NCBI GenBank assembly: GCA_016200965.1
Contig: JACQDT010000001.1
Coordinates: forward strand, 3,544-67,543
DNA length: 64,000 bases
Direction of reading: 5' to 3'
Source of the DNA: Candidatus Azambacteria bacterium
GTDB taxonomy: Bacteria; Patescibacteriota; Minisyncoccia; GWC2-36-17; WO2-46-25
Shown here in pieces: positions 19,027-59,491 of the stretch. The notes beneath the pieces are model-generated. The model was given only the letters and a program-made list of their open reading frames with translations, did no database searches and was not told the DNA's origin. A program made the position numbers and the translations under genes. How positions within the stretch are numbered: position 1 is the first letter of the stretch; each line of letters begins with the position of its first letter.

Positions 19027-20171
19027 GAAGAAAGGTATTCCAATATGCAATCGTCAAAAACCGTTTCGCGGCGTTCTCTTTTATCATCTGCTACAATGCG
19101 TACGCGTACATTGCCGTCATACGACGACTGCTCCGCTCTCTGCGTTCGCGGGTTGCGTTCAAGGGGCAGTCCGGCAAGCCATGTTTCGTCGCGAAGCGCG
19201 TCGTATGCCTCCGGAGCATATTCCGACGCCACTACCCACACGTTGCCCGGCAATAAATTCGTTTTGTCTATCTGTGAAATCGCCGTAACCACTCCTTGCG
19301 CTATGTTGCGCGCCGCCGCAACGATCGTTTCTTTTATTTTTTCCGCTATCCAGGCATTAAGCGCGCCGCCTCGAAACGCATCAAGCATGCTCCGCGCTTC
19401 TTCTTTACCCACTGCGTGCGCCCGTGCCAGTTCTTCAATAAGTATACCATAACCGGCGCGAACAACGCCAATCCCCGCAATTTTTTTTGCGCGCACAACA
19501 ATAATATCGGTTTCATTTTCAAAAATTGCGGCCAATATCGCGCTGTCATTTCCCGTGAAAACCGTTTTCCATTCCGCTAAAGCACAGCGCACGTCCGTCA
19601 TTCCCGCGCATCGCATGCCTAAAGCGGAAGCGAATTCATCAAAAGCGCGTACCAGCGACTTTCCACACGCGATGCTCACTATATCCGCGGTTACTTCTTT
19701 TCCATTTAAACCAACCGCGTCGGGAACCGCAAAACCGTCTACCCAAAAACGCTGGGGGATATTGCGGAATTCGGACGCGGACGCTTCGTTTTCCTTTCCG
19801 TACCATTTTGAAGTGACCGCCTCCACTTCTTCTTTGGTTATTTTCTTTTCCTTATCCTGGCGTATTCCCTTCGCCTGCGCGAATGAAAACATCCCCGTGC
19901 CCCCCGAAAGCGCGACGATAAAATCTTTCGCCCCACTTTTTGATTCCTTGGAAAGCGCCTGCAGGGCCTTTTCGCAATTGAGTATTATTTTTTCTGCGGC
20001 AAAATCCCCTTCGGACACCTCGCTCTCCTGTTTTTCGCTCCCGCGCTCCACTACCACCACCCGGTCGCCTTCCTTTTTCACCACCATGGCGACAATGTTG
20101 TCCGTATACACGACAAACACCACCGCCCGTGAGTAGTCCTTAAAAAAATCTCCTTTCACAAGAAATGACAT
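19023..20171 (-). CDS. hypothetical protein, possibly actin-like ATPase fold (FtsA/PilM-like); carries one 42-bp repeat insertion
   Basis: N-terminal VVFVVYTDNIVAMVV and IVALSGGTG segments resemble ASKHA-fold proteins. A 14-aa NPRTQRAEQSSYDG insert sits near the C-terminus. Confidence 0.35.
   Translation of the reverse strand: MSFLVKGDFFKDYSRAVVFVVYTDNIVAMVVKKEGDRVVVVERGSEKQESEVSEGDFAAEKIILNCEKALQALSKESKSGAKDFIVALSGGTGMFSFAQAKGIRQDKEKKITKEEVEAVTSKWYGKENEASASEFRNIPQRFWVDGFAVPDAVGLNGKEVTADIVSIACGKSLVRAFDEFASALGMRCAGMTDVRCALAEWKTVFTGNDSAILAAIFENETDIIVVRAKKIAGIGVVRAGYGILIEELARAHAVGKEEARSMLDAFRGGALNAWIAEKIKETIVAAARNIAQGVVTAISQIDKTNLLPGNVWVVASEYAPEAYDALRDETWLAGLPLERNPRTQRAEQSSYDGNVRVRIVADDKRERRETVFDDCILEYLSS
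19116..19157 (+). repeat. 42-bp intragenic repeat unit, copy 1
   Basis: gtcatacgacgactgctccgctctctgcgttcgcgggttgc, in frame within the 19023..20171 ORF. Confidence 0.9.
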
Positions 20172-20395: not shown

Positions 20396-21793
20396 TCACT
20401 TTTTAGGAGGAGCGGGAACCGCCTCCGGCGGTTTGTTGATGTGCAACGTAAAGTGCGGAAAAACAGAACGCGCTTCGGCGTCAAGAAAAAAACGGAGAGC
20501 GTCTTCAAGCGCAACGCGCTGTTTTGCCACCAGATCCGCATCAAAAAGCAGATCGGCGGTGCTGTGCTTGACGTTCAGCTTGCCGTTAAGCTGGCCAAAA
20601 CGCTCGTTCAGCTTCGGGCCCAGCGCGGCATCAAGGGCTTTATCAATCCCCCGATCAAGCTGTTCTTTATCTTTCCACGCCTGCCACACGGAGATGAAAT
20701 CCTCCTTTTTTTTCATCATCCGATAATCCACCGTGACGGGCAGTGCAATTCTCCGCGCTCCGTCAATGAACGTGAACGTTTTTGGAAAAGAACCGTCAAC
20801 AGGCACGCCCGGCACGACCCGATACCGGAAGTGATTGATAGTGTTTTTCTCCCAGGTGAGAAAGTGGTCGCCTATTTTAAGCGGCAAGCGGGCCACAAAC
20901 TCCCCCGACTTCCGGTCAACAAGCACCGCATGGTCTTCTACGGGATTCTTTTCGTAGACACTTAAAGGAATCCAGAACGAAAGCGAAGCATACAGCACCA
21001 TCACTGCAATCACGCAAGCGCTTGTCCGCCAATAAAGGTTCCTCCTGCTATTTGCCCGCAAGCCAAACATGAGGAAGCACGCGACCACCACAGAAGCAAG
21101 AGTGGAAAGAAACAAACCGATCGCGCCCGAGATTCGCCAGTTGAAAATCCAATACCAGACGATCTCGGCAAGGCATCCGATGAGCAGAGTGAAATCGCGC
21201 GCCGTTTCAATCCTGTTTTGGTTTCTTTGTATCCACGGAGCAAGAAACCGAAGCATCCTTGATCCTTGACGCCAGAACGCGCCGACTGCCCGGCCTATTG
21301 CTCCCCCTATCTGGCTCACCGCTCTCCGCATTGATTTTTGCGCTTCCTTTGCCCAGCTTGTCGCTTCGTTGAACTCTCGTTCAACCTGCACAATACTGCA
21401 TGCGTTTCCCGAAAGCAGAAGCGACATCACCGGCCACAGCTTTGTTTGAAGCGGTTTCTGGGCATAGCCGTCAATGCGAAAGCTCTCTTTACAATACTCG
21501 GACTCGCCGGAAGCCAAATGATAGAGCGTCACGCCGAGCCGCCGGAACGATTCCCGCAAATCGGGGACCCCGTTTTTTGCCTCAAAGCGGATCTTCCTTC
21601 CGCGATGAATCTCAATGCGGTTCGGCGGAAACGATACGTATTCCCCCTTCTGGGCACCTTTGGCGCATTCATTCAGAAGAACCTTTGCTACGGCAATCAG
21701 CTCTTTCTCGTCCATCACGAGTTGTTTCCTCTGTTCGGCCATTGTGTAACCCCCTTTCCTTTGAGTGTAGTGCATGAAATTCTCAACGTGCAT
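20396..21793 (-). CDS. membrane protein with C-terminal SPFH/band-7-like region (hypothetical)
   Basis: Central TM segments. C-terminal VTVDYRMMKKKEDFISVW region with a charged coiled-coil tail, reminiscent of SPFH proteins. Confidence 0.35.
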   Translation of the reverse strand: MHVENFMHYTQRKGGYTMAEQRKQLVMDEKELIAVAKVLLNECAKGAQKGEYVSFPPNRIEIHRGRKIRFEAKNGVPDLRESFRRLGVTLYHLASGESEYCKESFRIDGYAQKPLQTKLWPVMSLLLSGNACSIVQVEREFNEATSWAKEAQKSMRRAVSQIGGAIGRAVGAFWRQGSRMLRFLAPWIQRNQNRIETARDFTLLIGCLAEIVWYWIFNWRISGAIGLFLSTLASVVVACFLMFGLRANSRRNLYWRTSACVIAVMVLYASLSFWIPLSVYEKNPVEDHAVLVDRKSGEFVARLPLKIGDHFLTWEKNTINHFRYRVVPGVPVDGSFPKTFTFIDGARRIALPVTVDYRMMKKKEDFISVWQAWKDKEQLDRGIDKALDAALGPKLNERFGQLNGKLNVKHSTADLLFDADLVAKQRVALEDALRFFLDAEARSVFPHFTLHINKPPEAVPAPPKK

Positions 21794-35381: not shown

Positions 35382-35401
35382 ATGTAAAGTTGACTTTACA
35401 T
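35382..35401. promoter_or_regulatory. second copy of the palindromic operator ATGTAAAGTTGACTTTACAT, with downstream conserved CCTTGTGGATAA box
   Basis: Shares a roughly 70-nt conserved architecture with 34650-34720: cctttact ... tatacac ... ATGTAAAG..CTTTACAT ... CCTGTGGA.AA. Confidence 0.5.
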
Positions 35402-35423
35402 TCCTTGTGGATAACTTTACACT

Positions 35424-35669
35424 TTATTCTGCCAGGGCACTGTCCAATTTCTGTTTATCAAATCCCAGGATAGTAACTCTTGATCCATCGTCTTTGGTCA
35501 TGACCGTAAACGGCACTCCCATTTGTCCTGACTCGGCTATCATTTCTTCAATGGCTTTCGGATCCTTGTCAACATAGATTTCCTCAAACGGTATTCCCTT
35601 GGACCCTAGGTATTCCGCTTCCATTTTGCAGTACGGACGGGTTGTTGTTTTGTATATTTTTATTGTCAT
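35424..35669 (-). CDS. glutaredoxin-fold small protein with single active-site Cys (RPYC)
   Basis: 81 aa. KIYKTTTRPYCKMEAEYL ... GVPFTV glutaredoxin/NrdH-like fold, with the first Cys of CPYC replaced by Arg. Confidence 0.55.
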   Translation of the reverse strand: MTIKIYKTTTRPYCKMEAEYLGSKGIPFEEIYVDKDPKAIEEMIAESGQMGVPFTVMTKDDGSRVTILGFDKQKLDSALAE

Positions 35670-35691
35670 ATAAAAAGGTTGGTTCTTTTTG

Positions 35692-36057
35692 TTAATATTT
35701 CACTCGACCGTAAAGTAACCCGACAATTTTTGCCAAAATCATTACCCCTAATGTAACCGCGAGCCAAGCATCAAGTTCGTGTCTAAAGCTTTGAATGATA
35801 ATAGCGGTTACCAGCGTAGCCGTGCCGGCCAGAAAAGCAATGCGACCCGCCATCATTTTATGAAGACCTTCTCTCTCGTCTTTTGCGTTCTCTCTCCAAA
35901 TGAAGCTTGCAAACAGACTGAAGAGCACCACCAATCCCAGCACCATCATCATCAATAAAATGGGGGGCATCCAAAGCTCAAAGGGATTGAGGAATAAAAC
36001 GAGCAATGCGATCAGTACCCCAGACACAATGATTTCTTGCAAAAAGTTATTTTTCAT
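35692..36057 (-). CDS. small 3-4 TM membrane protein, co-transcribed with the XRE regulator
   Basis: Hydrophobic 121-aa ORF overlapping the stop of the upstream HTH gene. Classic pairing of an XRE regulator with a small membrane protein. Confidence 0.4.
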
Positions 36058-36295
36058 ATTTGATAGAGAAAATTTCTTCTACAGATATTGGTTTTTTTCC
36101 ACCGGAGGCGGATCCGCCTTCGGCGGAGAAAAACTTTGCCATTTTAAGCGCCAAAAGCACCAAGGGAGTGTAATTCCCCTTCTCAATCGCGATAATTGTC
36201 TGGCGCGTTACGCCAACCGCATGGGCCAACTCTTCTTGGGTGATGCCGGTTTTTGTTCGTAATTCGTACACCTGATTCTTGATAATTTCTTTCAT
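36047..36295 (-). CDS. XRE-family helix-turn-helix transcriptional regulator
   Basis: [45 protein letters not shown] is a YozG/Cro-C1-type HTH. The C-terminus contains the in-frame palindromic element that encodes [10 protein letters not shown]. Confidence 0.75.
36099..36126. repeat. 28-bp GC-rich near-perfect palindrome ccaccggaggcggatccgccttcggcgg, in frame inside the XRE regulator gene
   Basis: Self-complementary around a central GGATCC. Second copy at 38018-38045. Confidence 0.8.
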
Positions 36296-36358
36296 ACATA
36301 TACTGATATGGTGCAGTATACATACTGAATGGTCAGAATGTCAAACATGCTTTACATC

Positions 36359-36387
36359 TTGACAGCAGATATTGGCAAAACTATACT
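36359..36387 (+). promoter_or_regulatory. sigma70-type promoter for arsR (TTGACA, 17-bp spacer, TATACT) embedded in the inverted repeat TGTCAA-N14-TTGACA
   Basis: Consensus -35 and near-consensus -10 about 35 nt upstream of the ArsR start. The -35 forms an inverted repeat with TGTCAA at 36339. Confidence 0.5.
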
Positions 36388-36420
36388 ATTAAGTAGTTTC
36401 ATAATTACTTAAGTATCACT

Positions 36421-36744
36421 ATGTTAACCAAAAAGCAAATAACCGAAGTCAAAGCGGGGCTGGGGACCAACACCGCCGGCTTTCCCTTGGTATTTGCGGC
36501 GCTCGGCGATTCCCGCCGATTCCATATCTTCAGATTACTTATGAAACATCATGATATCTGTGTGACCGATGTCGCCCGCGTGTTTGGCATGAGCGTCTCC
36601 GCCGCCTCGCAACAGCTGCGCGTGCTTGAACGGGTCGGCCTCGTGCTAAAAACGCGGATGGGCCAGATGGTGTGCTATGAGATCAATCAAGAAAATATCA
36701 TCGCGAAACAATTGGTCGCATTATTAAAAAAGTCAGATAAATGA
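36421..36744 (+). CDS. ArsR/SmtB-family metalloregulatory transcriptional repressor
   Basis: HIFRLLMKHHDICVTDVARVFGMSVSAASQQLRVLERVGLV winged-helix HTH typical of ArsR. Confidence 0.8.
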   Translation: MLTKKQITEVKAGLGTNTAGFPLVFAALGDSRRFHIFRLLMKHHDICVTDVARVFGMSVSAASQQLRVLERVGLVLKTRMGQMVCYEINQENIIAKQLVALLKKSDK

Positions 36745-37121
36745 ATAATTTTTTCAAAAAGACGGCAATAAGGTTCGCGCCGATTTTAGGCGCAGGAGCC
36801 ATAGGGGTCTGCCCGCTTTGTTGGATTGGCTCGGCATCGCTTCTCACCTATCTGGGGCTCGGTGCGCTTATCCCGTATTGGCGCTGGATCGGTTTTAGCC
36901 TCATCGCCCTGGGAGCGGCCGGGTTCCTCCTTGATTATCGCTCCCACAGAAATCCTTACCCGCTTATATCTCTTGCCCTCGGGGCGATGCTTCTCTATGT
37001 CGGCCGGTATGTATTTTTGAGCACGTGGGGCGCATGGCAAATTTGGGGGCCAGGTGCAGCGCTGATCATTGCAGCCGTTGTGTATAACAAATGGCTCTTT
37101 AGAAAACCGAGGACGATATGA
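36741..37121 (+). CDS. small membrane protein with CPLC motif in first TM helix (MerT/MerF-like metal-binding?)
   Basis: 4-TM 126-aa ORF overlapping the arsR stop. GVCPLCW motif at the TM1 entrance. Confidence 0.35.
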   Translation: MNNFFKKTAIRFAPILGAGAIGVCPLCWIGSASLLTYLGLGALIPYWRWIGFSLIALGAAGFLLDYRSHRNPYPLISLALGAMLLYVGRYVFLSTWGAWQIWGPGAALIIAAVVYNKWLFRKPRTI

Positions 37122-38143
37122 ATCTCCCAAAGCCAGCATCCATAATCATAGGGGGATTGTTCATTGCAGTCTTGGGATATTCCGTTTTGTCGCGCACTCT
37201 GTTCCAGAACGACTTTCCCATGCCGCAAGGCGGAGAAACCAAAAAAGAAACAAAGGGAATTATGATAACGGACGGCGTGAAACATAGCGTGCCGCTTGAT
37301 GAAATCATCGGAGGCGGCCCTTCAAAAGACGGCATACCGTCCATTGATAAGCCAAAGTTTGTTGTTCTTGCGGAAGCCAACTCGTTCTTGAAGGACTCCG
37401 AGCCGGGCATTGCGTTAGAGATGGGCGGCGTGAGCCGATTTTATCCGTTCCAAATTCTCGTGTGGCATGAAATTGTGAATGACACGATTGGCGGCACGCG
37501 CGTGCTGGTAACCTATTGCCCTTTGTGTCTTTCGGGAATTGTCTTTGATCCGGCAGTAAATGGCGAGCGCGTCGAATTCGGCACTTCGGGTAAATTATGG
37601 AATTCCAATTTAGTCATGTATGACCGCAAGACCGATTCGTTATGGTCGCAAATTTTGGGTGAAGCGATTGTCGGAGAGATGACGGGCATGAAGCTCGCGG
37701 TTCTCCCGTCCGACATGATCCGCTTCGGAGATTTCAAAAAATTGCATCCTGAGGGCAGCGTTCTTTCCCGCGACACGGGTACAACGCGCTTCTACGGCCA
37801 AGACCCGTACGGCGATTACTACACGACCCCGGGAACTTATTTCCCGGTCGGCAAAAAGGATGCCCGTCTTAATGAAAAAGATTTTGTCCTTGGCGTTGTC
37901 GTCAATGGAAAAGCAAAAGCATATTGGCCGGAAGCGGTGAAAAAAGCCGGCGAGGTAACGGATCGGTTTGAAGGAAAAGATATCGTTGCGCGATACGAAA
38001 AAGAGGTTGACGCGGTGCGTCTTTTTTCCGCCGAAGGCGGATCCGCCTCTGGCGGAGAGAAGAAATTAGTACGCATCAATTCATTCGGCGCGTTCTGGTT
38101 TTCCTGGGTTGCCGCGCATCCGGAGACGGAGTTGTACAAATGA
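37118..38143 (+). CDS. DUF3179-family secreted protein
   Basis: N-terminal signal anchor. YCPLC ... WNSNLVMYDRKTDSLWSQ pattern characteristic of DUF3179. The C-terminus contains the in-frame palindromic element encoding [10 protein letters not shown]. Confidence 0.55.
   Translation: MNLPKPASIIIGGLFIAVLGYSVLSRTLFQNDFPMPQGGETKKETKGIMITDGVKHSVPLDEIIGGGPSKDGIPSIDKPKFVVLAEANSFLKDSEPGIALEMGGVSRFYPFQILVWHEIVNDTIGGTRVLVTYCPLCLSGIVFDPAVNGERVEFGTSGKLWNSNLVMYDRKTDSLWSQILGEAIVGEMTGMKLAVLPSDMIRFGDFKKLHPEGSVLSRDTGTTRFYGQDPYGDYYTTPGTYFPVGKKDARLNEKDFVLGVVVNGKAKAYWPEAVKKAGEVTDRFEGKDIVARYEKEVDAVRLFSAEGGSASGGEKKLVRINSFGAFWFSWVAAHPETELYK
38018..38045. repeat. 28-bp GC-rich palindrome ccgccgaaggcggatccgcctctggcgg, in frame inside the DUF3179 gene
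   Basis: Near-identical to the element at 36099-36126 in reverse-complement-equivalent form. Encodes the same [10 protein letters not shown] peptide. Confidence 0.8.
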
Positions 38144-38147
38144 GAAT

Positions 38148-38393
38148 ATGAGAATCATCATTTACACAAAAACGGGGTGTCCGTGGGCGCGAGAGGTGAT
38201 GGATTTTCTGACGAAGCGTGGCATCGTGTTCGAAGAGCGGAACATGCTTGAACATCCGGAGTATCAAAAAGAAGCGCTGGATAAGTCGGGTCAATGGAAA
38301 TCCCCCACGTTGGACATTGACGGGCACATCCTTCCCGATTCGGATGCGGCGCAGGTTGAGGAATATCTTGATAAAAAGGTCGAAAAAAATTAA
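38148..38393 (+). CDS. glutaredoxin-fold small protein with single active-site Cys (CPWA)
   Basis: MRIIIYTKTGCPWAREVMDFL ... GQWKSPTLDIDG glutaredoxin fold, with the second Cys of CPYC replaced by Ala. Start trimmed to the internal Met. Confidence 0.55.
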   Translation: MRIIIYTKTGCPWAREVMDFLTKRGIVFEERNMLEHPEYQKEALDKSGQWKSPTLDIDGHILPDSDAAQVEEYLDKKVEKN

Positions 38394-38420
38394 TAAAATA
38401 ACTTAATCAAACAATACAAT

Positions 38421-38582
38421 ATGGATCAAAAAGACAGCAAAACAACCTGCATGGCATGTGCCTGCCCATGCGAAATGCATAAAGAGCACAATCATCCGGT
38501 TGAAAAGAAAGAGGCAAAGGTGTGCACAATGTGCGGTCACGAGCACAAAGCCGATGGCTCGTGCGATTGCGGCTGCAAGTAA
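38421..38582 (+). CDS. 53-aa Cys/His-rich metallothionein-like peptide (not in ORF track)
   Basis: MDQKDSKTTCMACACPCEMHKEHNHPVEKKEAKVCTMCGHEHKADGSCDCGCK has 9 Cys and 5 His in CxC/CxxC clusters. Sits in the metal/redox island. Confidence 0.5.
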   Translation: MDQKDSKTTCMACACPCEMHKEHNHPVEKKEAKVCTMCGHEHKADGSCDCGCK

Positions 38583-38591
38583 TCACCGATC

Positions 38592-39116
38592 ATGAATAGG
38601 GTTTTACCCATCATTATCGGAGTTTTGATTGTCGGGGGCGTGGGTTGGCTGGTAGTTTCCAGCCGCAACGCCCCCGAACGATCAAACCAGCAAGCGGAGT
38701 CAGAGAAAGCGCCGGATTTTAATCTCAAAGATTATAGTGGCAATACAGTGAGGATTGCGGATTTTCAGGGCAAACCGCTGGTGATAAACTCCTGGGCGGC
38801 ATGGTGCTCATTCTGCCGCAAAGAGCTCGTTGATTTTGTAACGGTTCAGAAAGAATTCGGCGACCGAGTCATTATTATTGCGGTTGACCGCGCCGAATCG
38901 CTCACCGTGGCAAAAAAATACACCGATGAACTCGGCGTAACCAATGGAATGTTGTTCTTGCTTGACCCTACCGATCCTTTTTTTCAATCTATCGGCGGGT
39001 TTTCAATGCCGGAAACAATTTTTGCTGATGCGAAAGGCACTATCGTATTCCATAAAAGAGGACCGATGAATGTTCAGGAAATGCGCGAGAAAATTCAACA
39101 GCTTTTATCGCGATAG
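38592..39116 (+). CDS. TlpA/ResA-like thiol-disulfide oxidoreductase
   Basis: Signal anchor plus thioredoxin fold with WAAWCSFCRKE (CxxC). Confidence 0.7.
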   Translation: MNRVLPIIIGVLIVGGVGWLVVSSRNAPERSNQQAESEKAPDFNLKDYSGNTVRIADFQGKPLVINSWAAWCSFCRKELVDFVTVQKEFGDRVIIIAVDRAESLTVAKKYTDELGVTNGMLFLLDPTDPFFQSIGGFSMPETIFADAKGTIVFHKRGPMNVQEMREKIQQLLSR

Positions 39117-39120
39117 ATAA

Positions 39121-39876
39121 ATGGACATTTCTCTCATCATCCCCGCGTTCATTGCCGGCGTTCTCACATTCCTTGCGCCATGCACACTTCCCTTGGTGCC
39201 GGGTTATCTGGGATTTATCAGCGGCGTTTCCATCAATGACCTCGAAGATCCGCAAAAATCCGCATCAGCTCGCAGAAAAATTTTTTTGAATGGACTTTTG
39301 TTTGTTGTCGGTTTCAGTTTTATTTTTATACTGCTTGGCAGCCTTTTTGGTCTGGGCGGCTCCGCTCTTGTTCACTATCGGATTTGGCTCTCGCGAATCG
39401 GCGGTATTTTCGTAATACTTTTTGGGCTTTTTATGATCGGAGTTTTGCGGCTGCCATTTTTGAATGTTGAAAAAAATATCAGAGCAATTATGGCGTTGAA
39501 GCCGGGCAATCCGGCAAGTTCTCTCATTTTCGGAGCAACATTTGCTTTTGGCTGGACCCCCTGCGTGGGACCTATTCTTGGTTCAATCCTGACGCTTGCC
39601 GCGGCGTCTGCAACAGTCGGCCAAGGAGCCTTTCTTCTTTCTATTTTCTCATTTGGCCTTGCGGCGCCCTTTCTCCTTATCGCCGCGGGTATCGGTTCCG
39701 CGTCTTCCTACATCACGAAGTTGAGCGGGTACCTTACTGTTGTTTCGGTGATCGGAGGGATATTCCTCATTTTCCTCGGCACTTTGCTTCTGACCAATAA
39801 GTTTGGCGTATGGATTGCATACTTCTACCAATGGTTCAGTTTTATAAACTATGATAGTTTGTTATATTACTTGTAA
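39121..39876 (+). CDS. ccdA: cytochrome c-type biogenesis protein CcdA, second copy
   Basis: FLAPCTLPLVPGYLGFISG and GWTPCVGPILGSIL motifs. Paired with the upstream TlpA-like gene. Confidence 0.8.
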   Translation: MDISLIIPAFIAGVLTFLAPCTLPLVPGYLGFISGVSINDLEDPQKSASARRKIFLNGLLFVVGFSFIFILLGSLFGLGGSALVHYRIWLSRIGGIFVILFGLFMIGVLRLPFLNVEKNIRAIMALKPGNPASSLIFGATFAFGWTPCVGPILGSILTLAAASATVGQGAFLLSIFSFGLAAPFLLIAAGIGSASSYITKLSGYLTVVSVIGGIFLIFLGTLLLTNKFGVWIAYFYQWFSFINYDSLLYYL

Positions 39877-39878
39877 TT

Positions 39879-40052
39879 ATGGTTAGGGTCATACAACAAA
39901 ACGAAAAAATACTATACCAGTGTGGGGAGTGTGGTTTCCACTATAAAGATCAAACACAAGCGGAAAAATGTGAGGCGTGGTGCAAAGAGCATCACAGTTG
40001 CAACATTGAGATCATCGCTCACGCAGTAGAAAATACGAAAAACAAGCAGTAG
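39879..40052 (+). CDS. 57-aa putative zinc-ribbon protein
   Basis: MVRVIQQNEKILYQCGECGFHYKDQTQAEKCEAWCKEHHSC has a CxxC...CxxxC arrangement. Starts 2 nt after the ccdA stop. Confidence 0.35.
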   Translation: MVRVIQQNEKILYQCGECGFHYKDQTQAEKCEAWCKEHHSCNIEIIAHAVENTKNKQ

Positions 40053-41652: not shown

Positions 41653-43227
41653 TTAAACTGTTCTTTTGATGTAACGCAACCCCACGAAAAAAATACCGAT
41701 GATTCCTAAAATAAAAAGGTACGTGTTCCACGGAAACGCGTGTGCCGCAAGCGCCACGGGCGCCTGTTTTTCGTCTCGCGCTTCTTTGGCGGTGGATGCG
41801 ACCGTTGTCTCGCTTCCTTCGCTTTTTGCCTCCGCCGGCGCCACAACATCTTGAAACTGCGGCGCGGGCGCCACGGTCGGTTTTTTGATTTCTATCGCGG
41901 AAACCGGAGAAGAAGAAATTCCGCCGGCTGGCTCTTGCGCGGAAAGAAACATATTTGTTCCGCCCGGCGTGGGGCTTTGTGTCCATACGAATCGTTCGTC
42001 ATACGACGACTGCTCCGCTCTCTGCGTTCGCGGGTTGCCGTCATCGGCGCGCGCGACCGACCAGCACATCTTTGCATTTTCATATGTAACCTCATGCGCC
42101 GTCTGGCCTGTCGGATATGATAATACAACATGCCCCGACAAAGGAAATGTTATCTTGAGCGTGTCTCCGGAAAACACGAGAAATCCGCCGCCCGCGATGA
42201 ATGTATGTTCCGGAACACGAAACATCGCGGCGGACCCGCCTATTCCTATGCTCCATCCGGATAAATCCGCAAACGAATCGCTTGTATTATACAATTCAAG
42301 CCACTGCCCGCCGCTTTCAGATGAAGGAAGAAATTCGGAAATAACGACGCTCTGCGCGTATATGGTCGCCTCTATTTGATCCTGACTTGAGTGCGAGCCG
42401 TCCGATACCGTCAGCACCGCGACATACTTCCCCGGAAACTGATACCGATGCATGGTCGTTTTTCCTTCGGCAACATTCCCGTCGCCGAAATTCCATGAAA
42501 ACGCGAGTAAACCGGCGCCCGTTGATCGTGAGGCGTCAAATGAAACCGCATCTCCCGCAACAGCGACGATATTGGCGCCCGCATCAGCAACAATGGTATT
42601 TTGGGAAGCGGCGGAAGCACCCGACGGTTGCGCCGTCGTCTGGGACGAAGAAGACGGAGAAACACCTGCCCCGCTGTTTGGCGCGCGAGGCGTGCCATGT
42701 ATCGGATTGCCTTTCACATCCATCCCGTTTTGTGCCGTTCCGTCATTCGTATGCCATCCTTGCGCGTCTTTTTCCATTGACGCGTAATCGGGCGAAGCGG
42801 ACCCCGCGGGCCAACCGGAGGAAAAATCTATATTGTCCACAACGTTTCCCGCGTTATCTTTCAGCACTACATGCTCTCCGGAATTATTCAATCCGCTCCC
42901 CCCAAATGAGCCCGTCTCATCGGCGGGAACATCTGCGATGACGGTGTCATCGGTCCGTTCAATAAGATAATATCCGTTCGCGGATATTTTTTTCGTCAAC
43001 GCAATGACAAGCGTGCTCCCGCCCGCCTCGTACAGTCCCCAACCCGCAAGATCAATTTCGGCGTTCGTCGCATTTTTCAGTTCCACCCATTCATCGGCGC
43101 TGTTGGCTTTTGTCCCCATCCACCCAACTTCGTTTATCACCACATCGCCCGCGCCCGCGGCAAACACATATAAAGGGATGCTCCACACAACAAGCAACGC
43201 CTGAAAAAGAATTCTTGCGATTCGCAT
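41653..43227 (-). CDS. secreted protein with two lamin-tail domains and a PKD domain; carries one 42-bp repeat insertion
   Basis: Lamin-tail-domain signatures VVINEVGWMG ... DEWVELKN ... DLAGWGL and VVISEFLPS ... QWLELYN ... DLSGWSI. PKD-like FSWNFGDGNVAEG. DDG-NPRTQRAEQSSYD-ERF insert. Confidence 0.6.
   Translation of the reverse strand: MRIARILFQALLVVWSIPLYVFAAGAGDVVINEVGWMGTKANSADEWVELKNATNAEIDLAGWGLYEAGGSTLVIALTKKISANGYYLIERTDDTVIADVPADETGSFGGSGLNNSGEHVVLKDNAGNVVDNIDFSSGWPAGSASPDYASMEKDAQGWHTNDGTAQNGMDVKGNPIHGTPRAPNSGAGVSPSSSSQTTAQPSGASAASQNTIVADAGANIVAVAGDAVSFDASRSTGAGLLAFSWNFGDGNVAEGKTTMHRYQFPGKYVAVLTVSDGSHSSQDQIEATIYAQSVVISEFLPSSESGGQWLELYNTSDSFADLSGWSIGIGGSAAMFRVPEHTFIAGGGFLVFSGDTLKITFPLSGHVVLSYPTGQTAHEVTYENAKMCWSVARADDGNPRTQRAEQSSYDERFVWTQSPTPGGTNMFLSAQEPAGGISSSPVSAIEIKKPTVAPAPQFQDVVAPAEAKSEGSETTVASTAKEARDEKQAPVALAAHAFPWNTYLFILGIIGIFFVGLRYIKRTV
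41998..42039 (+). repeat. 42-bp intragenic repeat unit, copy 4
   Basis: Exact unit followed by a partial gtcatc. In frame in the lamin-tail-domain gene. Confidence 0.9.
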
Positions 43228-50595: not shown

Positions 50596-53500
50596 ATGCC
50601 CACCTTTGAAGAACGGTTCAATAAACTGAATGAGGGGCAACGAAAGGCCGTCCAAGCCATCGAGGGGCCTGTCCTTGTCATCGCCGGCCCGGGAAGCGGC
50701 AAGACGGAAATACTCGGCCTTCGCGTGGCCAATATCCTGAAAAAAACGGACACCCATCCGGGCAGCATCTTGTGCCTCACCTTCACGGATTCCGCCGCGG
50801 CAAACATGCGCGAGCGGCTTTCCGGCCTCATCGGGAGCGACGCCTACCGCGTCGTCATTGCCACGTTCCACAGTTTCAGTACCGACATCATCAACCGCTT
50901 CCCTGAATATTTTTACAACGGCGCGGCGTTCTCTCCCGCCGACGAGCTTACGCAAATGGAAATCCTTGAAGGCATATTCAAGGAATTGCCGTACGACAAT
51001 CCCTTGCGCACACAACACCCCGTGCAAGGATTCACCTATCTGGGAAGCGCGCGCAAATCGATCAGCCAGCTTAAAAAAGCCGGCATCGGCCTGGATGCGT
51101 TCGCGCGCGTTTTGAAATCAAACGCGCACGCCATCGGCGGAATAAACAAAAAGATGGAAATATTTGACGCGCGCATGAGCATGAAACAGATTGCCGCCAT
51201 CCGCGAATGCGCGGCGCAGCTTGACGTGTCTGCGCAAGAATCCGCGCTGAAAGAATACGCGCCGCTTGCGCACGCGGTCGCGCGCTCTCTTGAAGAAGCC
51301 GTTTCTTTAGCAGGAGAACAAGATACAATCGCGCCGCTATCCAGGTGGAAATCCGACTGGGTAAAAAAGAATGATGATATGCGTGTCTTTAAAGATACGA
51401 TGTACATGGAGAAGCTTTCCGCGCTTGCTGACGTTTATAACACATACCTGACCCGTATGCATGAGCGCGGGTATTACGATTTCGACGACATGCTTTTGAA
51501 CGTCCTTGAAGCGCTTGAACGCAACAGCGCGCTTCGCTATGAACTGCAGGAGCGGTATCAATACATTCTTGTGGATGAATTTCAGGACACCAACGATGCC
51601 CAGATGAAGCTGATCTCTTTTTTGACCGACGCCCGGGTGCACGAAGGGCGGCCCAACATCATGGTGGTGGGAGACGACGACCAGGCGGTGTATAAATTCC
51701 AGGGGGCTGAAATTTCAAACATCCTTGAGTTTCAAAGGCGATATCGCGACCCCGAGATCATCACGCTCACGCATAATTACCGCTCGCGCCAGGATATTTT
51801 AGACCTTGCCCGCCATATCATCCTGAAAGGAACGGAGCGGCTTGAACGGCGCATCGCCGGCCTTCGCAAAGATCTCGTCGCGGCGGGAAACAATATAAAA
51901 GAGGGTGCGATTGCAAGCCGCGTGTTCCCCTCAAGCGCGCACGAACGCCACTTTATAGGAAAAGAAATAAAAAAACTCATTGAAGGCGGCGCCAAGCCCG
52001 ACCACATAGTCGTTATCGCGCGACACCACCGCGACCTTGAAGCGCTTCTGCCGTACTTCGCCGCATCGGGCATTCCCGTCGCCTATGAACGCCAGCGCAA
52101 CGTGCTTCACGAGCCGCATGTGTACCAGATAATCCAAATCGCCAGATTCATATCTTCGCTCGCGCGGAAAAATCGCGCCGAAGCGGACGAATATCTTCCC
52201 GAAATTTTGAGCTTTCCTTTCTGGGGACTTGAGCGCAACACCATATGGGAGCTTTCCGCTTCGGCGGGGGCGCGAGGGGCGTTGTGGCTTGAAACGATGA
52301 TGCATCACACGGACGCGCGTTTGCGAAGCATAGCCGATCTTTTCCTTAACCTTGCTTTGCGCGCACAACACGAACCGGCCGAATACGTGCTTGACGCGAT
52401 CATCGGCTCGCCGTCATACGACGACCGCTCCGCTCTCTGGGTTCGCGGGTCGCATGAGAACGCCATGGAGGGCGGGGCCGTAAGCCCGTTTCGCGAATAT
52501 TACTTCGGCAAAGAGAAATTCGCGCGCGACAAAGCGACGTATCTTTCGTTCCTTTCCGGCCTGCACGCGTTCGTGCGGGCGCTTCGCGAATACAAGCAGG
52601 GACGATTTTTGAAGATAGACGATCTCGTTGCGTTCGTGGATATGCACGAAAAAAATAACATGCCCATCACCGACCAGAGCCCGTTCGTCGCCGCCGACAA
52701 GGCAGTGCATCTGCTTTCCGCCCATAAGGCAAAGGGGCTTGAATTTGAAACGGTGTTTGTCCTTTCCTGCCAAGACAACATATGGGCGGGGTCGCCGCGT
52801 GGATCCATGCTTCCCTTCCCCATGAACCTGCCCATCGCCCCCGCCGGCGACACCATGGACGACCAGCTCCGGCTTTTTTACGTCGCGCTCACGCGGGCGA
52901 AACACAACCTATACCTCACTTCATTTGAAAAAATGGAAAACGGAAAAAGCTCGGCGCGACTGCGCTTCCTTATAGAGGAGGAAGGCGGCCACATGAAAAC
53001 AAACGTCAAAGCGGCATTGGCGCCTGCGCCCGAAGAAAAAGAAGATACGCCCGAGCCGACCGACATCTTTTCGGCAGGGTGGGAACAGTACAACCGCGGC
53101 CCTCGTATCGCCGACGAAGAAGCGCTTTTGCGCGCGCTCGTGAAGGACTATCAAATGAGCGTGACACATCTGAATAATTTCCTGAACGTGAAAAAAGGCG
53201 GTCCGCAGGCATTTTTGGAACAAAATCTTCTGCGGTTCCCTCAGGCAAAAACGCCGTCTTTATCCTACGGCTCGGCGATGCACAAAGCGATCGAGCTTTT
53301 GTATCTCCGCTTCAAAAAAGAAGGAGTGCTTCCACCGCCGGAGCATCTGACGCAAGCATTTGAACGCGCGCTTGAAATGCAGCGCCTCGCCAAAGATGAC
53401 TTTATGAAATATCTCGCTCAGGGAAAAAACGCTCTTACGAAATTTTACGAAATGAAAAAAGAACGATTTTCCCAAAGCGACCTGGTGGAAGTCAATTTCA

Positions 53501-58640: not shown

Positions 58641-59491
58641 ATGAAACAGGAAACTAAAAACACGCCTCCGCAGAACATATGGGACCTGGCGGTCATCGGC
58701 GGAGGGCCGGCTGGCATGATGGCGGCCTCGCGCGCGGCCGAGTGTGGCGCGAAAGTCGTTTTGCTCGAAAAAAACGATACGCTCGGCAAAAAGCTTCTCA
58801 TCACCGGCGGAGGCAGGTGCAACGTCACCAACGCGGAATTCGACACGCGAAAATTTCTCTCAAAATTCAAGGGAAACGATAAATTCCTCTTCTCGGCGTT
58901 TTCGCAACGGGGCGTCAAAGAAACGCTGGATTTTTTCCACGCGCACGATATGCCCACCAAAGTGGAAGCGGAAAACCGCGTATTCCCCAAAAGCAACAGC
59001 GCCAAATCGGTGTGGGACGTGCTCGCGCGCTCCATGAAAGACAACGGCGTAACACTCCTTTCGCGTTCCCCTGTCGCTGGATTTGTTAAAAAAGGAAACG
59101 AGATACTGGCCGTGCGTTGTGCGGATGGAAAAGAAATAAAAGCCAAAGCGTTCGTGCTGGCAACCGGCGGCATGTCGCGCCCCGAAACCGGCTCCACGGG
59201 CGACGGATTCGTGTGGCTGAAAAAATCGGGCATACCGTCATTGCGTCGGACCCGGCTTTGGTGCCTGTTGCGGTCAAAGACGCCTGGGTCAAAAAACTCC
59301 AGGGCGTCAGCGTGCCCCGCGTCAAAATAACCCTGTTTCAAAACGGTCAAAAGCAAGACGTAAGTGAAGGCAACCCGCGAGCCCGGAGAGCGGAGCAGTC
59401 GTCGTATGACGACAAAATATTGTCCTTGTCCCAATTTCCTGTCCCGATTTCCGCGCCAAACCTTGGCCGGGCGGACTCTCAATTCGTATGA
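58641..59491 (+). pseudogene. HI0933-like FAD-dependent oxidoreductase (aminoacetone oxidase family), frameshifted near 59230 and truncated after a degenerate repeat copy
   Basis: GGGPAGMMAA Rossmann fold, GGGRCNVTN, and GSTGDGF-VW-AEKIGHTVIASDPALVPV. The family consensus is recovered only by joining two frames (one G missing in gtgtggctg). Ends about 115 aa short of family length. Confidence 0.55.
59369..59410 (-). repeat. 42-bp repeat unit, copy 8, reverse orientation and degenerate (encodes GNPRARRAEQSSYD)
   Basis: ggcaacccgcgagcccggagagcggagcagtcgtcgtatgac. Lies just before the premature stop of the HI0933-like gene. Confidence 0.8.

Follow-up and report, generated by a model that had tools for sequence, protein, structure and literature searches.

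In a 64,000-nucleotide (nt) stretch of the Candidatus Azambacteria contig JACQDT010000001.1, called the window in the following, one and the same 30-nt palindromic DNA element lies in frame inside two genes, one for an XRE-family helix-turn-helix (HTH) regulator and one for a DUF3179 protein. We think that these two copies probably represent a widespread family of palindromic DNA elements, ultra-small, non-autonomous and mobile or selfish, which selection would filter down to those copies that are read as a harmless Ser/Ala/Gly loop. Alignment with orthologues identifies the encoded decapeptide as an insertion, as a preliminary description of this DNA had expected, with empty orthologous sites being shorter by exactly 30 nt, and it supports that the repeat inside the open reading frames (ORFs) is an inserted hairpin-forming sequence rather than ancestral low-complexity sequence. 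Moreover, as these comparisons show, the presence or absence of the element varies among closely related orthologues.

The two copies and their architecture

The preliminary description had placed a 28-nt palindrome in the XRE gene on the minus strand and in the DUF3179 gene on the plus strand, in frame in both cases and encoding the same decapeptide followed by (K/E)K, and this holds for both genes. Both strings are present as well: CCACCGGAGGCGGATCCGCCTTCGGCGG lies at 36099-36126, just where it had been reported, but CCGCCGAAGGCGGATCCGCCTCTGGCGG lies at 38028-38055, the range of 38018-38045 given there being 10 nt too far left. The palindrome core that had been noted as common to the two, GGCGGATCCGCC, indeed has two exact matches in the window, one per copy. 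If one mismatch is allowed, there are three matches to the core versus 0.32 expected, the additional one being a match of GGCGGACCCGCC at 42229 that was judged unrelated, and the 28-nt pattern with up to three mismatches is found solely at the two known places (2 occurrences versus 0.00 expected). The recurrence of the palindrome in the window is far beyond chance, and the similarity between the copies reaches 40 nt at 88% identity once the flanking T-run and A-run are counted. A possible third copy at 21572 (63%) and a hairpin at 20418 were also judged unrelated. The copies, their host genes and their flanks are:

36098-36127, minus strand: copy 1 of the 30-nt element, TCCGCC GAA GGCGGA TCCGCC TCC GGTGGA on the sense strand; the decapeptide corresponds to residues 57-66 of the XRE protein.
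38027-38056, plus strand: copy 2 of the 30-nt element, TCCGCC GAA GGCGGA TCCGCC TCT GGCGGA; the decapeptide corresponds to residues 304-313 of the DUF3179 protein.
36047-36295, minus strand: host gene 1, XRE-family HTH regulator of 82 aa; typical orthologues have 70 aa and no insert.
37118-38143, plus strand: host gene 2, DUF3179 protein of 341 aa; 100% identical to P0001, an entry from Candidatus Azambacteria (Candidate Phyla Radiation, CPR/Patescibacteria).
36092-36097, plus-strand reading: T-run beside copy 1, i.e. the sense-strand A-run AAA AAA (Lys-Lys) 3' of the element; part of a pre-existing T-run/A-run target, outside the insert.
36128-36134, plus-strand reading: GAAAAAC beside copy 1, i.e. 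sense GTTTTTC (Phe-Phe codons) 5' of the element; the other target half.
38022-38026, plus strand: T-run 5' of copy 2, CTT TTT (Leu-Phe); left target half.
38057-38068, plus strand: GAG AAG AAA TTA 3' of copy 2; purine-rich right target half.

The codons GAG AAG AAA TTA are nearly invariant in all filled DUF3179 alleles and may therefore co-travel with the element. A small terminator-like hairpin, GACGCGGTGCGTC, followed by a T-run lies at 38009-38027 inside the DUF3179 gene, directly upstream of the insertion point, and the T-run targeted by copy 2 is part of this motif.

The natural unit of 30 nt is composed of two tandem 15-nt hairpin units, TCCGCC-NNN-GGCGGA, each with a 6-bp stem and a 3-nt loop. 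Relative to the sense strand both window copies are oriented alike, with the consensus TCCGCC GAA GGCGGA TCCGCC TC(C/T) GG(T/C)GGA, and in the family as a whole the units are TCCGCC-RAA-GGCGGA and TCCGCC-TCY-GGCGGA. Two folds are possible for such a sequence, either two short hairpins or one long palindrome/hairpin centred on GGATCC. The loops are of the types RRA and TYY, and their sequence varies widely among 125 copies. In the flanks, three bases per side are conserved over 123 copies (tTt ... aAa), with T at position -2 in 105 and A at position +31 in 97 of them. A perfect long hairpin is not borne out by covariation of the loop positions, as the middle loop pair is preferentially mismatched: G.T or A.C is found in 67 of 121 copies, and a Watson-Crick pair in 29, versus 48.6 expected by chance. 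Since the middle pair is Watson-Crick less often than expected, the family is intrinsically asymmetric (RAA ... TCY), and so are the window copies. Internal mismatches often serve the strand-specific recognition of hairpins, and we speculate that the conserved G.T / A.C mismatch allows a strand-specific recognition of hairpin DNA.

The mRNA hairpins suggested in the preliminary description are also predicted by RNA folding, which gives -30.9 and -26.1 kcal/mol for the sense-strand RNAs (z about -5.5), the U-run pairing with the A-run. An intrinsic terminator was considered and rejected, as on either strand the T-run precedes the hairpin and the A-run trails it, and a terminator scan made no call on the elements. 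A scan of 35950-38200 against Rfam 15 at a permissive threshold gave no family, but solely miRNA-hairpin noise (25 bits versus a gathering score of 88). A search for long composite elements with lone 15-nt units at their ends gave none; most "single" units are decayed two-unit copies.

Insertion, possible exchange and decay at orthologous sites

Among the 120 DUF3179 proteins closest to the window protein most read VRLF-EKKADGT-LERINPF, whereas 12 contain the decapeptide, with the ending (V/E)RINPF, or decayed forms of it. At the DNA level, empty sites have CTT TTT directly followed by GAG AAA AAG, and filled sites have CTT TTT, the 30 nt and then GAG AAG AAA. The 120 closest XRE proteins comprise 96 without insert (85 of these with 70 aa), which typically read KFF directly followed by KK, and 24 in which SA(K/E/Q/G/R)GGSA(S/F)GG is located exactly between FF and KK; in an independent sample of XRE sites from metagenomes, 1 of 71 parsed sites was filled. 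Empty XRE DNA reads TTTTTT joined to AAGAAA and filled sites retain both runs, the nearest empty allele in this comparison being ~83% identical. Neither a target-site duplication nor an extended shared flank was found at filled versus empty sites, and the flank profile contains no direct repeat. In one Doudnabacteria genome, two copies have a KNLN right flank, which is encoded by different DNA in each. The element is thus shown to enter DNA as a block of exactly 30 nt, placed between a T-run and an A- or purine-run (TTT^AAA-like), without target duplication.

The preliminary description had considered that distant orthologues with the same peptide at the same position would point to ancestral sequence. 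Such orthologues do exist in Taylorbacteria and Liptonbacteria, yet the insertion reading stands because ~90% of the DUF3179 and ~80% of the XRE hits have no insert, because filled alleles are scattered among empty ones, and because the codons of the element hardly vary, whereas synonymous sites elsewhere in the gene have diverged. In six filled DUF3179 genes, codons for the same residue are identical in 96% of the cases within the element (125/130), in 70% within the next ten codons and in 50% in the rest of the gene (1807/3644), i.e. the element is much younger than the genes carrying it or is protected from change.

Close pairs of filled and empty alleles are found for both genes. Several filled XRE proteins match empty ones at 96-100% over the N-terminal 50 residues, and the insert is present at the identical site in at least three separate XRE groups. 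In DUF3179, P0003 is 90% identical to the empty P0080 and P0017 is 89% identical to the empty P0106. Filled DUF3179 alleles are scattered in a neighbour-joining tree, which has no bootstrap support but of which the nearest-neighbour identities are independent, and they are no nearer to each other (0.774) than to empty alleles (0.768). The filled alleles share flanking features. All 12 filled DUF3179 alleles lack four loop residues (ADGT or similar), whereas the standard seven-residue loop is present in 101 of 108 empty ones; LV comes after the loop in 7 of the 12 filled versus 11 of the 108 empty alleles, with TTA as the Leu codon in 6 of 6 filled alleles sequenced; and the filled XRE alleles of one group have two extra codons after KK that are seen in no empty allele. 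As the filled backbones are polyphyletic yet share flanking codons, we infer that the element, together with a few flanking codons, may pass between orthologous alleles by homologous replacement instead of being inserted afresh each time. In other lineages, the DUF3179 loop, i.e. that of L129 (P0005) and also those of P0056 and P0066, contains a different insert of 21 nt, CCT TCG AAT CCC TCG GGG CAA, which is read as PSNPSGQ.

Decayed copies occur in P0008, P0124, P0138 and P0144, e.g. with GGA>GAA in P0008 and STKSGSTSSG in P0138, and show no compensating changes. Copies of one unit are present in P0004, P0141 and P0143. Moreover, three XRE orthologues (L130:2190, L131:2196, L132:2186) and an unrelated gene of another genome (L018:958) contain, nested just 3' of GGATCC, a palindrome of a second tiny family (CCTGCC..GGCAGG, 21-24 nt), which is also found alone elsewhere. 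The existence of decayed copies lacking compensation, of one-unit copies and of copies with a nested palindrome favours a history in which the element would be young and then decay. The 843 kb surrounding the ascertained copies contain only 6 additional exact copies and 9 that have 1-5 mismatches, and no large graveyard of old copies. Two genomes, that of the window and GCA_016188455.1, have both the XRE and the DUF3179 gene filled although each filled allele is rare, which suggests that some genomes are or were permissive for the element.

Family, host range and reading frames

A collection with one genome per species (185,579 species) was scanned with the query TCCGCCNNNGGCGGATCCGCCNNNGGCGGA, which has 24 fixed bases, and yielded at least 119 loci versus ~0.002 expected at equal base frequencies; all counts based on loci refer to the matches listed. 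Among these, all carriers are metagenome-assembled genomes (MAGs) of uncultivated bacteria. They comprise many CPR lineages, Omnitrophota, the Planctomycetes-Verrucomicrobia-Chlamydiae (PVC) phyla with Kiritimatiellae, Lentisphaerae, Planctomycetia and Verrucomicrobiota, Ignavibacteria, Chloroflexota, one Desulfotomaculaceae genome and others. Mis-binning cannot explain this range, as some copies are located on contigs of >1 Mb from long-read assemblies. The density is low, with 2 copies in the 64 kb of the window and, in other carriers, ~1 additional copy for every 56 kb, i.e. about one per 30-60 kb.

BLAST searches with the 38-nt element in the PLSDB plasmids and the GenBank phages gave nothing relevant, and IMG/VR contains two viral contigs with the element. 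In the Kiritimatiellae MAG STD1_155 the element heads a dispersed intergenic repeat of ~190 nt (L005:4587, L005:6408, L050:7325). [quoted passage not shown]

The longest ORF through each copy has the SAxGGSAxGG frame in 85 of 125 cases, and for copies located well within ORFs of at least 150 aa the count is 50 of 55 (p = 7e-19). The hosts are unrelated and include AspRS, PheT (two copies), PurA, PurC, the ribosomal proteins S9 and L15, a RecJ-like protein, a GT1 glycosyltransferase, an S41 peptidase, GH57 and the tails of type IX secretion system (T9SS) proteins. The two other frames are likewise used in proteins that can be recognised: an Aminotran_5 enzyme contains RQRRIRLGRK, a riboflavin kinase/cytidylyltransferase has PPEADPPPAD in its linker, and a further decapeptide of this kind is located at the C-terminus of a GH1 enzyme. 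Of the 67 copies in CPR genomes, 44 are read in the SAxGG frame within long ORFs; of the 36 copies in non-CPR genomes, 20 are found outside long ORFs, frequently just past the end of a gene. The use of multiple frames and the intergenic copies imply that the unit is a DNA element and that the peptide is whatever the surviving frame yields. The orientation inside ORFs, seen from loop 2, gives Ser in 40 copies and Phe in 15, a bias that is consistent with selection on the peptide. An AlphaFold model of the DUF3179 protein (mean pLDDT 58) places the decapeptide at the tip of a β-hairpin, weakly supporting its location in a loop. In three Ignavibacteria proteins (L029, L042, L072) the element occupies one and the same place in the T9SS C-terminal sorting domain (..F, then SAxGGSAxGG, then ..LASGVYFY), a pattern that suggests spread between paralogous domains.

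Possible modes of spread, alternative readings and related elements

If the family is indeed mobile, something acting in trans would presumably copy the element, which itself encodes nothing. Candidate routes are a structure-specific nuclease or recombinase acting on hairpin or cruciform DNA, template switching at the replication fork with the T-run and A-run serving as microhomology, or biased uptake and recombination. Once in a gene, the element and its few flanking codons could spread between orthologous alleles by homologous replacement. In the gene-dense CPR genomes a copy would survive only where its translation is harmless, and this filter would favour the TCC-GCC-... frame, i.e. Ser-Ala-x-Gly-Gly twice in a flexible surface loop, as well as the Ser rather than the Phe orientation. 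The effect here would be a 10-residue loop per protein and a hairpin of -26 to -31 kcal/mol per mRNA, and a benefit for the host need not be assumed.

If this is true, the element would be among the smallest mobile elements known, and its near-unchanged sharing across phyla (CPR/Patescibacteria, Omnitrophota, PVC phyla, Ignavibacteria) would be unusual, all the more as it is written into essential proteins, e.g. aminoacyl-tRNA synthetases and ribosomal proteins. TCCGCC-NNN-GGCGGA twice in tandem would provide a searchable marker for the movement of DNA between uncultivated lineages. This marker may explain short Gly/Ser/Ala-rich "insertions" in CPR proteins, which are currently handled as protein features by annotation and structure prediction, and allows one to ask whether hairpin DNA spreads without a transposase. 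The interest centres on the trans-phylum range and the mode of spread.

Several points weigh against mobility. The case for mobility comes from sequence comparison rather than from observed movement, and as the stem bases were fixed by the search pattern the conservation of the stems across genomes is only partly informative. Clustering of all ORFs at the at least 119 loci revealed no recurrent linked transposase or nuclease, the largest cluster being present at 5 of 119. The copy number is low, unlike that of classic repetitive extragenic palindromic (REP) sequences or MITEs, and without a vector it is difficult to account for the near-identity between phyla, given only two viral contigs and no plasmid or phage record. 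Finally, the 12-nt loss common to all filled DUF3179 alleles is better explained by a cassette that spreads through recombination than by insertion again and again, and selection or biased DNA uptake could equally drive such spread.

A protein-free "hairpin cassette" crossing phyla is also conceivable, although we consider it rather unlikely. Here, a nuclease-resistant 30-nt double hairpin with T-run/A-run flanks would spread via environmental DNA, would be installed between TTT and AAA by host replication or recombination alone (microhomology or oligonucleotide-type), and would then be driven through orthologous alleles by biased uptake or gene conversion. This would constitute a new propagation mode of selfish DNA without a dedicated enzyme, in ultra-small uncultivated bacteria.

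With a similarly small chance, the element is a signal of the DNA-uptake type or one that biases recombination and is under molecular drive, i.e. fragments bearing the palindrome would be preferentially taken up or recombined by competent, DNA-scavenging bacteria, and filled alleles would replace empty ones without any transposition. Uptake signal sequences (USS) and DNA uptake sequences (DUS) are short motifs that spread through orthologous genes by recombination, use least-cost frames and form paired hairpins between genes (cf. PMC2346458). They are motifs of 10-30 nt that occur ~1 per kb, originate by point mutation and are specific for a single bacterial family, in contrast to the element with one copy per 30-60 kb. 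Drive would account for the polyphyletic filled backbones with shared flanking markers (the DUF3179 loop loss in 12/12, LV in 7/12 versus 11/108, the extra codons of XRE group 1) and for the finding of neither a linked enzyme nor a target duplication; moreover, the carrier lineages are uncultivated and many have small genomes. USS and DUS also show a choice of frame and orientation inside genes, which the choice made by the element resembles. However, the density of the element (2 in 64 kb; ~1 per 56 kb elsewhere) is orders of magnitude under that of known uptake sequences, the motif arises as a 30-nt block insertion and not by point mutation, and new sites in unrelated genes would still need an insertion process. 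To our knowledge, there is no single uptake receptor common to CPR, Omnitrophota, Ignavibacteria and the PVC phyla.

It is also improbable that the element is a selected cis-element, either an mRNA hairpin (for processing, stability or translational pausing) or a DNA site for protein binding or recombination with arms around a GGATCC spacer, which would be recognized by a conserved factor. The stable sense RNA hairpins predicted for both window copies, the element codons that are far more conserved than host synonymous sites, the same sequence in many phyla and the conserved mismatch inside the hairpin (G.T / A.C, 67 of 121 copies) would all agree with such a role. Most orthologues, however, do without the element, its hosts and positions share nothing, and the orientation preferred in ORFs is the one that has the weaker A.C mismatch in the sense RNA. 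Additionally, there is no Rfam match, the element is not terminator-like, and the decayed copies (GGA>GAA, STKSGSTSSG) argue against a required structure since they show no compensating changes. Selection for a Gly/Ser/Ala-rich linker or motif at the protein level, with the DNA palindrome being incidental, is very unlikely: the peptide is a plausible flexible loop, at a β-hairpin tip in the low-confidence model, and the SAxGG frame predominates, but hardly any variation is seen in the ten codons, more than a constraint on the peptide would call for, so that the codon data already contradict this reading, and the same DNA is read otherwise in other real proteins (e.g. PPEADPPxAE) or is intergenic, while the hosts are functionally unrelated. 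A sequencing or assembly artefact, e.g. a linker or adaptor palindrome with a BamHI site, can practically be dismissed, for although all carriers are MAGs and GGCGGATCCGCC is present in cloning primers in the literature, the copies come from independent projects and platforms, including long-read MAGs with contigs >1 Mb, are found at one codon position even in orthologues that have diverged, have decayed and nested derivatives, and show a strong frame bias.

Coming back to a mobile or selfish palindromic element, several known systems may be compared. The label "REP-like" given in the preliminary description does not fit, as the element has no GTAG or CGTC head (it ends in TCCGCC/GGCGGA with T-run/A-run flanks), is not extragenic in CPR genomes and has a low copy number. 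REP sequences, bacterial interspersed mosaic elements (BIMEs) and REP doublets forming hairpins (REPINs) are extragenic, high-copy and species-specific, have a GTAG or CGTC head and co-occur with a gene for a REP-associated tyrosine transposase (RAYT, of the Y1 HUH type) (PMC3733652). Similarities exist in that these are G+C-rich hairpin palindromes of 20-40 bp and that the tandem hairpin pair recalls REP doublets (PMC3733652, PMC3116915). Both window copies, in contrast, are intragenic, with 2 in 64 kb versus hundreds per genome; with respect to RAYT co-occurrence, the search of the surroundings of the copies found no protein family recurrent near the at least 119 loci. MITEs have terminal inverted repeats, a target-site duplication, a length of about 50-500 bp and a parent insertion sequence (IS), whereas the element has only 30 nt and no target-site duplication, and no parent element is seen near the copies. 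Rickettsia palindromic elements (RPEs) are in-frame palindromic repeats in many unrelated genes of small genomes, where they result in extra surface peptides, and encode no transposase. The element resembles them as an in-frame palindromic insert in many unrelated ORFs, its translation being inferred from the intact ORFs. RPEs, however, are about 100-150 bp long and confined to Rickettsia, whereas the element has 30 nt, occurs in several phyla, uses a T-run/A-run target without duplication and has no similarity in sequence or size to RPE families.

Mitochondrial GC clusters (yeast GC42, the var1 cluster), the double-hairpin elements of Allomyces and the repetitive hairpin-forming elements of sponges are short G+C-rich hairpins in A+T-richer DNA with unexplained machinery, the stems being more conserved than synonymous sites, the loops variable, and copies showing presence/absence polymorphism or being merged and nested (PMC4478555, PMC2800124). 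The element likewise consists of two hairpins with variable loops and shows presence/absence polymorphism among close relatives. The var1 cluster is in frame and subject to one-way gene conversion. These elements are organellar, however, with other sequences, and yeast GC42 targets an AG dinucleotide, whereas the element occurs in free-living or episymbiotic bacteria of many phyla and most of its CPR copies are translated. The small dispersed repeats (SDR) that Elhai et al. reportedly described in 2008 in Nostoc and other cyanobacteria are said to be mobile, 21-27 nt long, some of them palindromic, intragenic and nested, their mechanism being unexplained; they are restricted to cyanobacteria, have other sequences and a high copy number, whereas the element has a low copy number and a very wide taxonomic range.

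Besides the element, the window contains a separate 42-nt repeat, CGTCATACGACGACTGCTCCGCTCTCTGCGTTCGCGGGTTGC, which is presumably the "first" intragenic repeat class of the preliminary description. It occurs singly or as 2-3 tandem units at 19115, 27865, 27907, 41997, 49014, 49056, 52412 and 63380 on the plus strand and at 59365-59415 on the minus strand, and contains a CGTC...GACG hairpin. Six of the eight forward copies are read in frame as GNPRTQRAEQSSYD, in ORFs of 386-710 aa, and those at 52412 and 63380 are read differently. As the window and its relatives hold the 42-nt unit, the CCTGCC..GGCAGG palindromes and the 21-nt insert, tiny in-frame repeats are probably general in these genomes.

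Both host genes are located in a thiol-redox neighbourhood (35400-39900, also L122-L131) with ArsR, glutaredoxin, DUF3179, DoxX, a thioredoxin-like protein and DsbD, and conservation of this neighbourhood extends to other Parcubacteria. XRE and ArsR are divergent, and the region between them contains, at 36315-36387, two sigma-70-like promoters arranged back to back, each of which agrees with the consensus at 11 of 12 positions.

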